This document shows, piece after piece, positions 32,453 to 32,948 of a stretch of DNA of 41,879 bases (position 1 is its first letter; the number at the start of each line of letters is the position of its first letter). Source of the stretch: Patellaria atrata CBS 101060 (lineage: Eukaryota); NCBI GenBank assembly GCA_010093705.1, contig MU006094.1:296020-337898 (forward strand), written 5' to 3'. The notes under the pieces are model-generated. The model made no database searches, had not been told where the DNA came from, and worked only from the letters and a program-made list of their open reading frames with translations. The position numbers and the translations under genes were made by a program.

Positions 32453-32948
32453 ATGAAGTCCATCCTCATAGTGTCTGCTCTCATTGCAATGGGAATCGCT
32501 GCTCCAGTCGCTAAGACCACCAGTACGTCCTCTACAGCGAATATCAATGCGGTGATAAAAGCTAACATTTGAAGACTTCGAGGCAGATTCATTGCTTCAG
32601 GTCAGCAAAGACGAATCTTCTTATGCCACCAGGGACACATTCGAAGCAGACGCCCTCCTCCAAGTCAGCAAGGATGCATCTTCCTACGTCGACAAGCGTA
32701 GCAACTTCGAAGCTGATCCTTTGCTTGACGTAGCAAAGGGTGCAAAATCTTCCTACTTCGAAGCAGACCCTCTTCTTCAAGTCAGCAAGGATGCATCCTC
32801 CTATGCCGAAAGGAATACCTTCGAAGCGGACCCCTTGCTAGACGTTGGAGATGTCGCTGAATCTTCTTACGCTACGAAGCGGGGAAACTTCGAAGCGGAT
32901 GGTTTGCTCCAAGTTGACAAGACCGACTCATCATACGCTAGCGAGTAA
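32453..32948 (+). CDS. Secreted Kex2-processed repeat protein; putative RiPP (dikaritin-type) precursor, 147 aa
   Basis: Signal peptide MKSILIVSALIAMGIA|APVA, intron 32523..32574 (GTACGT...GCTAAC...AAG), then six FEADxLLxV...SSY repeats separated by TR/KR/ER/KR-containing linkers. Confidence 0.9.

Follow-up and report, generated by a model that had tools for sequence, protein, structure and literature searches.

The stretch of DNA analysed here, referred to as the window, comprises 41,879 nucleotides of Patellaria atrata CBS 101060 (contig MU006094.1, positions 296,020 to 337,898 of the forward strand). Its spliceosomal introns, together with its AA9, major facilitator superfamily (MFS), fungal-rhodopsin and UstYa genes, mark it as DNA of a filamentous ascomycete. 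The subject of this analysis is a small two-exon gene that encodes a protein of six related tandem units, and the relationship of this gene to a divergently oriented neighbour belonging to the UstYa/DUF3328 family of peptide-modifying enzymes. The small gene, which probably encodes a peptide precursor, is called the precursor gene throughout. Positions are those of the window and the features of the locus are as follows.

32453–32522, + strand: precursor exon 1 (70 nt, ATG at 32453), encoding MKSILIVSALIAMGIAAPVAKTT and the first base of a split Asn codon (translation and splice model)
32523–32574, + strand: precursor intron (52 nt, GTACGT...GCTAAC...AG), interrupting the Asn codon directly 5′ of the first FEAD (splice model)
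32575–32948, + strand: precursor exon 2, with six units, their linkers, the tail ASE and a TAA stop at 32946–32948 (translation)
32577–32624, + strand: unit 1, FEADSLLQVSKDESSY, a 16-mer, followed by the monobasic linker ATRDT (32625–32639), its Arg three residues ahead of the next Phe
32640–32687, + strand: unit 2, FEADALLQVSKDASSY, a 16-mer, followed by the linker VDKRSN (32688–32705), dibasic KR
32706–32756, + strand: unit 3, FEADPLLDVAKGAKSSY, a 17-mer, with no linker and joined straight to unit 4
32757–32804, + strand: unit 4, FEADPLLQVSKDASSY, a 16-mer, followed by the monobasic linker AERNT (32805–32819)
32820–32870, + strand: unit 5, FEADPLLDVGDVAESSY, a 17-mer, followed by the linker ATKRGN (32871–32888), dibasic KR
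32889–32936, + strand: unit 6, FEADGLLQVDKTDSSY, a 16-mer, followed by ASE and the stop
31749–32452, no strand: divergent intergenic region, 704 bp between the UstYa and precursor start codons
30870–31748, − strand: UstYa/DUF3328 gene, with exon 1 at 31748–31514, an intron at 31513–31460 (54 nt) and exon 2 at 31459–30870; 274 aa (PF11807, E = 3.3e-43)
31211–31197 and 31109–31095, − strand: the UstYa HxxHC motifs HQLHC and HYEHC, invariant in an alignment of 29 orthologues
28231–29690, + strand: MFS transporter gene of several exons, 5′ end undefined, tail-to-tail with the UstYa gene (Pfam MFS_1, E = 1e-26)

The exon 1 product consists of MK, a 14-residue hydrophobic stretch and then GIA/AP, and by eye resembles a signal peptide. 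Joining the exons restores the Asn codon right ahead of the first FEAD. An earlier first-pass annotation, made from the letters and their open reading frames (ORFs), had placed the feature at 32575–32948; the repeat ORF was correctly recognised but represents only the second exon of a gene that begins at the ATG at 32453. The same annotation described six different units in two length classes, and this matches the translation of 32577–32945 exactly. Each unit has the pattern FEADxLLxV, four or five further residues and SSY, no two units are the same, and LLQV is found in the four 16-mers and LLDV in the two 17-mers. The linkers it listed (ATRDT, VDKRSN, none, AERNT and ATKRGN), including just two KR sites and the fusion of repeats 3 and 4, were confirmed by the same translation.

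The precursor contains no Pfam domain, the only matches (to MREG and GSIII_N) being sub-threshold and attributable to chance, and an ESM Atlas query with the precursor returned no usable match. The window's precursor is absent from the predicted proteins of a collection of 5.8 billion proteins, so the gene seems to be unannotated in its source. Two overlapping ORFs in another frame or on the other strand (32569–32733, + strand, and 32589–32780, − strand) were considered as the true gene and rejected, as homologues conserve only the FEAD frame. A 19-nt direct repeat (two copies, 86 % match) was detected by Tandem Repeats Finder directly after the precursor stop codon, at 32951–32991, in the presumed 3′ untranslated region.

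The repeat is maintained at the protein level

FEAD occurs six times in the precursor frame and is not found in the remaining five frames of the whole 41.9-kb window. When the 123-aa protein was shuffled 2000 times, no four-residue string occurred more than three times, and the six-unit repeat is far above chance. At the DNA level, Tandem Repeats Finder detected no repeat within the precursor ORF. The ten invariant residues are spelled by 25 different codons across the six units and, at conserved positions, synonymous codon differences numbered 4–8 against 0–2 non-synonymous differences, the synonymous count being the higher in all of the unit pairs (15/15). The earlier proposal that FEAD, LL, V and SSY are kept by selection on the protein thus holds.

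A precursor family with a bipartite unit

A word-indexed search produced six relatives with E ≤ 0.01 among 200 candidates. An exhaustive phmmer search of 1.84 billion representatives produced 33 matches with E ≤ 1e-3, from which the 29 short ones were taken; the four long matches (database proteins P0028, P0030, P0032 and P0034) were left out uninspected. A family profile built from 18 members recovered 53 matches. In total, some 77 homologous precursors from six ascomycete classes were collected. The named members come from the Sordariomycetes (Monosporascus, Hypoxylon, Annulohypoxylon, Xylaria, Cytospora, Moelleriella, Metarhizium, Stachybotrys and Discula), Dothideomycetes (Setomelanomma and Alternaria), Leotiomycetes (Cudoniella, Clarireedia and Hymenoscyphus), Eurotiomycetes (Elaphomyces) and Lecanoromycetes (Acarospora, Xanthoria and Letrouitia).

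In MAFFT alignments of 20 and of 18 homologues, Phe1, Asp4, Leu7 and Ser-Ser-Tyr are invariant or nearly so. The first-pass annotation had named a lack of Tyr conservation in homologues among the findings that would speak against it, and in both alignments the SSY Tyr was found to be conserved.

Units were also counted with a regular expression that presupposes the head and tail motifs. This census covered 78 sequences, namely the window, 72 proteins and five of the metagenome loci described below (L004–L006 were dropped as near-copies of L003), and found 160 units in 77 of them; the remaining sequence, P0002, holds broken units only. The signature of the family is [N]FE[AT]Dx[ML]Lx[VI], 4–6 variable residues, SSYA and then x(0-5)-[KR]R-xx. 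At head positions 1–7 and 9 of the 160 units, F was found in 156, E in 132, A or T in 134, D in 151, P in 106, M or L in 145, L in 159 and V or I in 160. SSY is present in nearly every unit and is followed by Ala in 132 of the 160.

The variable stretch is five residues long in 126 units, six in 27 and four in seven, and four of the seven known 4-residue stretches, those of the 16-mers, are the window's. It has no conserved position, and Ala, Glu, Gly, Asp and Lys make up 75 % of its residues. At least three units are present in 22 members, which carry 3–6 units each. In family members only a few residues separate the signal peptide from the first unit, and the protein terminates 2–5 residues past the last SSY in 52 of 77 sequences, which together indicate that the functional unit is FEADxLLxV, a 4–6-residue spacer and SSYA. 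The gene structure is also shared: in all five loci inspected (L001, L002, L003, L007 and L008) an intron separates a signal-peptide exon from a repeat exon that begins at [DN]FEAD, and the upstream exon in each is of the type M..hydrophobic..AAPVA[KQR]PAS.

In three members (P0007, P0013 and P0022), normal FEAS..SSYATKR units alternate with a second type, NF[KE][AS]DxLF ... S/TSKR, that lacks SSY. These would be two-peptide precursors.

The first-pass annotation had divided the unit in another way, with FEADxLL as a recognition sequence carried by every unit, the variable segment ending in SSY as the cross-linked core, and the six units as a small natural library. This partition is possible, though we consider it doubtful. 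The invariance of the Tyr in the homologue alignments favours it, as does the fact that all six window units differ. Tyr is enriched in DUF3328-associated repeat precursors (65.6 % versus 38.2 %) and the peptide in the known ribosomal DUF3328 cases is cyclised via a Tyr ring (PMC7329392, partial text), while plant copper cyclases use a recognition sequence beside a variable core (PMC12186524, partial text). However, the composition of the variable stretch, its changing length and its lack of any conserved position look more like those of a spacer than of a core. Because the residues before the Tyr are always Ser-Ser, a short Tyr ring would take in invariant residues and not the variable ones. 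FEADxLLxV is as conserved as SSYA family-wide, which equally fits its being part of the product, and the assignment of one flanking motif to recognition and the other to the core was not supported. The case for a natural library is weak, as two of the 22 members with at least three units (P0010 and P0023) have three identical units each, and two others (P0155 and L003) have one unit repeated.

Linkers and the processing register

Three of the five window linkers are non-dibasic, compared with five of 75 in the rest of the family, and [KR]R is present in two of five compared with 70 of 75 elsewhere. Across the family's 80 internal linkers, units 3 and 4 are the one case of fusion. In these respects, and in holding four of the seven known 16-mers, the window copy stands apart from the other members.

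The register of the basic residue is retained. An Arg lies exactly three residues before the Phe (R-x-x-F) in all four window linkers, the spacing between [KR]R and the Phe is exactly two residues in 63 of the 72 dibasic family linkers, and all seven monobasic family linkers read R-x-x-F. The TR and ER sites of the window keep this register, and are thus better read as the usual sites minus the P2 Lys or Arg than as a second cleavage system. Kex2 accepts non-basic P2 residues at lower efficiency. The mixed cleavage sites and fused pair reported in the first-pass annotation are real, but the non-KR linkers are unusually frequent in the window copy and, where a linker is present, stand in the same R-x-x-F register as the others.

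The non-canonical linkers could mean that the window copy is drifting out of use. That this copy is decaying, or has been neo-functionalised, and no longer gives normal single units is rather unlikely, and would be compatible with a UstYa substrate role for the family as a whole. The linker counts and the fused pair point in this direction, the nearest relatives (P0002 and P0012) have broken units and similar AERST/AECPT linkers, and the gene is missing as a predicted protein from the collection of 5.8 billion. Against this, no damage is seen in the ORF, the start codon, the putative signal peptide, the intron signals or any of the six units, the ten invariant residues have been kept in every unit despite the 25 codons used, and the partner UstYa gene is intact with both HxxHC motifs.

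The strict register also bears on whether the product is a peptide at all. The signal peptide, the low-complexity hydrophilic spacers, the lack of a Pfam domain and the lack of a usable ESM Atlas match would suit a secreted, disordered, acidic repeat protein that acts intact, for example as a component of the wall or matrix. With a basic site in strict register ahead of the unit in 79 of 80 linkers, a protein that ends directly after its last unit, and pairing with a family of peptide-modifying enzymes, we regard this as very improbable.

Pairing with a UstYa orthologue

The splice model for the window UstYa gene reproduces a 274-aa database protein (P0035) from Patellaria atrata CBS 101060 with 99 % identity. 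The N-terminal hydrophobic segment, FHWIAHVVSLLAIGILSIILVL, is presumed to be a membrane anchor. In the alignment of 29 orthologues, four Cys residues are invariant (C91, C125, C135 and C163, in exon-2 numbering). A search of PDB sequences with the UstYa domain found no match at E ≤ 1. A complex prediction that used two copies of the UstYa lumenal domain and precursor units 4–5 gave a score of 0.02 against a mark of 0.34, a result that counts neither way. A tblastn search within the window detected one UstYa gene and one precursor gene and no more, and the 704-bp region between them is presumed to be a shared promoter.

JGI metagenome contigs were scanned with an alignment of six precursor members and eight loci were found (L001–L008). 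Using the window proteins in tblastn searches, a UstYa orthologue with 52–73 % identity was found in L001, L003, L004, L005 and L007, on the opposite strand and approximately 0.5–1.2 kb upstream of the precursor, and Pfam confirmed the UstYa assignment in L001, L003, L004 and L007. L006 includes only UstYa exon 1, at the contig edge, and L002 (1317 bases) is too short to judge. L003–L006 differ so little that they count as one lineage, which leaves four independent lineages carrying the pair: the window, L001, the L003 group and L007. An MFS orthologue (46–59 % identity) lies beside the precursor in L003–L007 and was not found in L001. When window positions 27–38 kb were compared with all loci by tblastx, the shared genes were the MFS, UstYa and precursor genes alone, plus a thiamine-pyrophosphate (TPP) enzyme gene in L001.

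The lists of precursor and UstYa database matches were clustered, so that counts apply among the matches listed and the presence of an organism in one list alone says nothing. Nine organisms are common to both lists, and in each of them (9/9) the contig carrying the precursor is as long as that carrying the UstYa. The precursor and UstYa genes have consecutive locus tags in several species, as follows, and their accessions are two apart in Elaphomyces granulatus.

Moelleriella libera: AAL_02371/02372
Xanthoria calcicola: ..002019/..002018
Hypoxylon sp. CI-4A: M426DRAFT_316338/316337
Metarhizium album: MAM_06633/06632

The UstYa orthogroup shows 52–78 % identity across ascomycete classes, a level of conservation that appears unusually high. 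The first-pass annotation had linked the precursor to an oxidase, and this link was strengthened by the finding of a UstYa gene 704 bp away and of a pairing kept across fungal classes.

An alternative is that the peptides are secreted unmodified as signals, in the manner of pheromones or of the Kex2-processed repeat proteins (KEPs), and that the UstYa acts on something else. We consider this improbable. The signal peptide, the repeats and the KR/RR sites would be expected of such a precursor, and very wide conservation with one gene per locus fits a physiological signal better than a toxin. The Talaromyces islandicus UstYa orthologue moreover carries a UniRef name taken from a non-ribosomal pathway. 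However, the divergent precursor–UstYa pair is retained from class to class whereas every other neighbour varies, and KEPs of the mating-factor type are almost never near DUF3328 genes (PMC7329392, partial text).

Probable function of the precursor

The gene is probably the substrate precursor for the neighbouring UstYa, in a widely conserved and uncharacterised family of UstYa/DUF3328-dependent RiPPs of fungi (peptides made by ribosomes and modified after translation). Of the enzymes of this type, CctR has been shown to be a membrane-anchored lumenal protein that forms a disulfide-linked homodimer, holds binuclear copper at HxxHC(x)nHxxHC and needs O2 and electrons; the cyclase AprY and the halogenase ApnU are reported to be likewise copper- and O2-dependent (PMC12435403, partial text).

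Under this reading, the precursor would enter the endoplasmic reticulum, where a membrane-anchored, lumenal UstYa would oxidise one or more of the invariant residues. The SSY Tyr is the prime candidate for oxidation, with FEADxLLxV as a possible docking element, though the roles of the two motifs could be swapped. A Kex2-type protease would cleave after the Arg three residues ahead of the Phe, exopeptidases would remove the two-residue stub and the basic tail, and the MFS transporter would export the product. Since two of the window sites are without the P2 Lys or Arg, units 1–2 and units 4–5 should separate less efficiently, and since the linker between units 3 and 4 is deleted these should emerge as a double unit, unless another protease sets the ends. 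Unit length is variable (16–18-mers), so that a ring joining the Tyr to the N-terminal motif would vary in size, making a tight macrocycle across the whole unit less likely.

Several observations weigh against this assignment. The precursor in L008 has only two units, and no UstYa gene was found within 10 kb of it. In this locus, the two in-frame units are found at 10010–10156, and the upstream 9 kb (1–9000) has a GC content of 26–32 % and almost no long ORFs. Such AT-rich upstream DNA indicates that L008 may be a decayed copy, and the module looks to have been wrecked by repeat-induced point mutation or something similar. In the window itself, three of the five linkers are without a canonical dibasic site. 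No RNA dataset containing the stretch was found that would show expression or splicing; the two sequencing runs in which it occurs span it colinearly through introns and intergenic regions, behave as DNA and may be the source of the window sequence. Lastly, the invariance figures from the census are partly circular as the regular expression presupposes the motifs, and the independent support for conservation is that from the MAFFT alignments.

A further and rather speculative possibility, to which we give little weight, is that the FEAD..SSYA peptides and their dedicated UstYa make up an ancient, Pezizomycotina-wide hormone- or signal-like system, with non-classical chemistry on the Ser-Ser-Tyr instead of Tyr-ether macrocyclisation. 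A Ser-centred acyl shift or a backbone rearrangement would be one possibility, if the Talaromyces islandicus orthologue discussed below truly is the transacylation-linked CctO, and the fungal-rhodopsin (PTH11-like) proteins encoded near the module could be candidates for the sensor.

Comparison with known systems

By analogy, the module may work like a minimal version of the asperipin-2a type, within the broad class of UstYa-dependent RiPPs of the secretory pathway. The asperipin-2a cluster (AprA, the DUF3328 oxidase AprY, a reductase and a transporter) has in common with it a secreted, Tyr-containing repeat precursor, a single UstYa and a transporter, a likeness in module layout. The asperipin core is a Tyr-rich hexamer, whereas the unit of the window family is 16–18 residues long, contains one Tyr and has a spacer between its two invariant motifs. 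The cluster also differs in its reductase, for which no counterpart was found among the 36 window ORFs scanned against Pfam. Just one DUF3328 protein acts in the asperipin-2a pathway (PMC7329392, partial text).

The dikaritins (ustiloxin and phomopsin, with precursors UstA and PhomA) combine a signal peptide, KR-separated tandem units, secretory processing and a UstYa with two HxxHC motifs (PMC7329392, partial text); the window module corresponds to them in its signal-peptide-like N-terminus, its tandem units with KR at two of five junctions, its UstYa with both motifs and, probably, its secretory processing. Strict dikaritins have tyrosinase, methyltransferase and multiple DUF3328 genes (Ding et al., as quoted in PMC12048977, partial text). 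In contrast to these clusters, where UstYa-type oxidases occur with a tyrosinase and a methyltransferase, the window has one UstYa and neither of the other enzymes among the 36 ORFs. The dikaritin Y-x-I-x core (PMC7329392, partial text) is not seen in the family, in which the Tyr is followed by Ala in most units and then by a variable residue with no conserved Ile, and the units are 3–4 times longer than those of dikaritins.

KEPs, surveyed by Umemura 2020 and Le Marquer 2019, are also secreted repeat proteins with dibasic sites, and a DUF3328 gene lies close to 22 % of KEP genes (PMC7329392, partial text). Under the rule of Umemura 2020, a KEP has a signal peptide and three or more tandem repeats, none shorter than 8 aa and every one flanked by KR, KK, RK or RR sites (PMC7329392, partial text). 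The window protein falls outside this rule because its only two dibasic sites bracket units 3–5 together, and screens of the KEP type missed the family because its members have few units and few dibasic sites. Family members RYP05058.1, KUI73761.1 and KZZ98820.1, from genomes surveyed in 2020, are missing from the KEP table. The strings FEAD, SSYA and FETD are absent from the readable supplements of Umemura 2020 and Le Marquer 2019, the Umemura table consisting of accessions and not of sequences. KEP type 13 (G-6) includes another Monosporascus ibericus protein (PMC7329392, partial text). In open-literature text, a scope that leaves subscription papers (Nagano 2016, Ding 2016 and Jiang 2021) outside, we found no paper that prints the family motifs or describes the family.

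The cyclochlorotine DUF3328 proteins of Talaromyces islandicus (CctO, CctP2 and CctR) belong to the same enzyme family, but their substrate is a non-ribosomal cyclic pentapeptide whereas the window enzyme is partnered by a repeat precursor made on ribosomes. The window UstYa shares 58 % identity with a T. islandicus protein (P0070, PISL3812_05751) that UniRef names 'Cyclochlorotine biosynthesis protein O'. This protein may be the studied CctO or may only be named after it. CctO is reportedly linked to an O,N-transacylation, or acyl shift, at Ser (Jiang et al. 2021). If P0070 is CctO, the closest characterised relative of the window enzyme is tied to a Ser acyl shift rather than to a Tyr ether, which would be of note given the invariant Ser-Ser, and an enzyme ascribed to a non-ribosomal pathway falls within an orthogroup whose partner elsewhere is a ribosomal precursor. 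A part for DUF3328 proteins in transacylation has been stated in general terms (PMC12048977).

The burpitide cyclases of plants (BURP) offer a more distant parallel, drawn in PMC12435403 (partial text), as they perform copper-dependent cross-linking of side chains with four planar His, and their catalysis is guided by a recognition sequence adjacent to the core (PMC12186524, partial text). Their fold and kingdom are unrelated and their cores are often fused to the enzyme, so that the analogy is one of mechanism only.

To our knowledge, structures are available for only a handful of UstYa/DUF3328-dependent fungal peptides, and the precursors are the bottleneck in mining for more. A lichen survey reported that repeated precursors were lacking from both of its UstY clans (PMC12048977). 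The family described here is conserved across many fungi, combines a long bipartite unit with a UstYa orthologue dedicated to it, and is represented in the window by an atypical, partly de-linkered copy. It occurs in plant pathogens, insect pathogens, endophytes and lichens, and can be searched for by a simple signature (FE[AT]Dx[ML]Lx[VI] ... SSYA ... [KR]R-xx) together with an enzyme partner matched one to one. The module of two or three genes is small enough for direct heterologous expression, and the bipartite unit would make a clean system for peptide recognition by DUF3328 copper enzymes. With its weakened and deleted linkers, the window copy is in effect a natural experiment on the need for processing.

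Neighbouring genes and other features of the window

The Pfam scan of the window covered 36 stop-to-stop ORFs (17 + 19). No tyrosinase, methyltransferase, peptidase, reductase or second UstYa was found among them, though small or heavily spliced genes could escape such a scan.

On the 3′ side of the precursor are the TPP enzyme gene and an AA9 gene. The TPP gene (acetolactate-synthase-like) is found at 34020–35848 (+ strand) in the window and at 11183–13048 in L001, with 71–82 % identity, and the other loci are without it. Its presence in both is probably synteny between relatives and not a sign that it is part of the module.

Fungal-rhodopsin genes (PF20684, PTH11-like) were found approximately 2–10 kb from the module in the window and in three further lineages, at the following positions.

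Window 22758–23174, − strand
L004 3495–4544
L005 ~3553–4599
L007 14802–15494 and 17607–18065
L008 12150–12722

The window gene is 51 % identical to one L007 copy, and the L008 gene is 67 % identical to the other. This proximity may reflect residual synteny or a functional link.

Two adjacent ORFs at 13703–14422 and 15233–15928 (both + strand) encode disordered, charged proteins with similar C-termini (LRLRLELNLDIEIQLKAKIHGDLTLGLL and LKLKLDVNLEVEIELKASLRGDLTLSLL) and no Pfam match, and may be a tandem pair of paralogues. Opposite the second of these, at 15392–16274 (− strand), are long ORFs of poly-Gly and Lys-rich low-complexity sequence, probably a simple-sequence tract and not a gene. A DDE_3/HTH_33 transposase fragment (Tc1/mariner-like) at 41389–41859 (+ strand) is cut by the end of the window.

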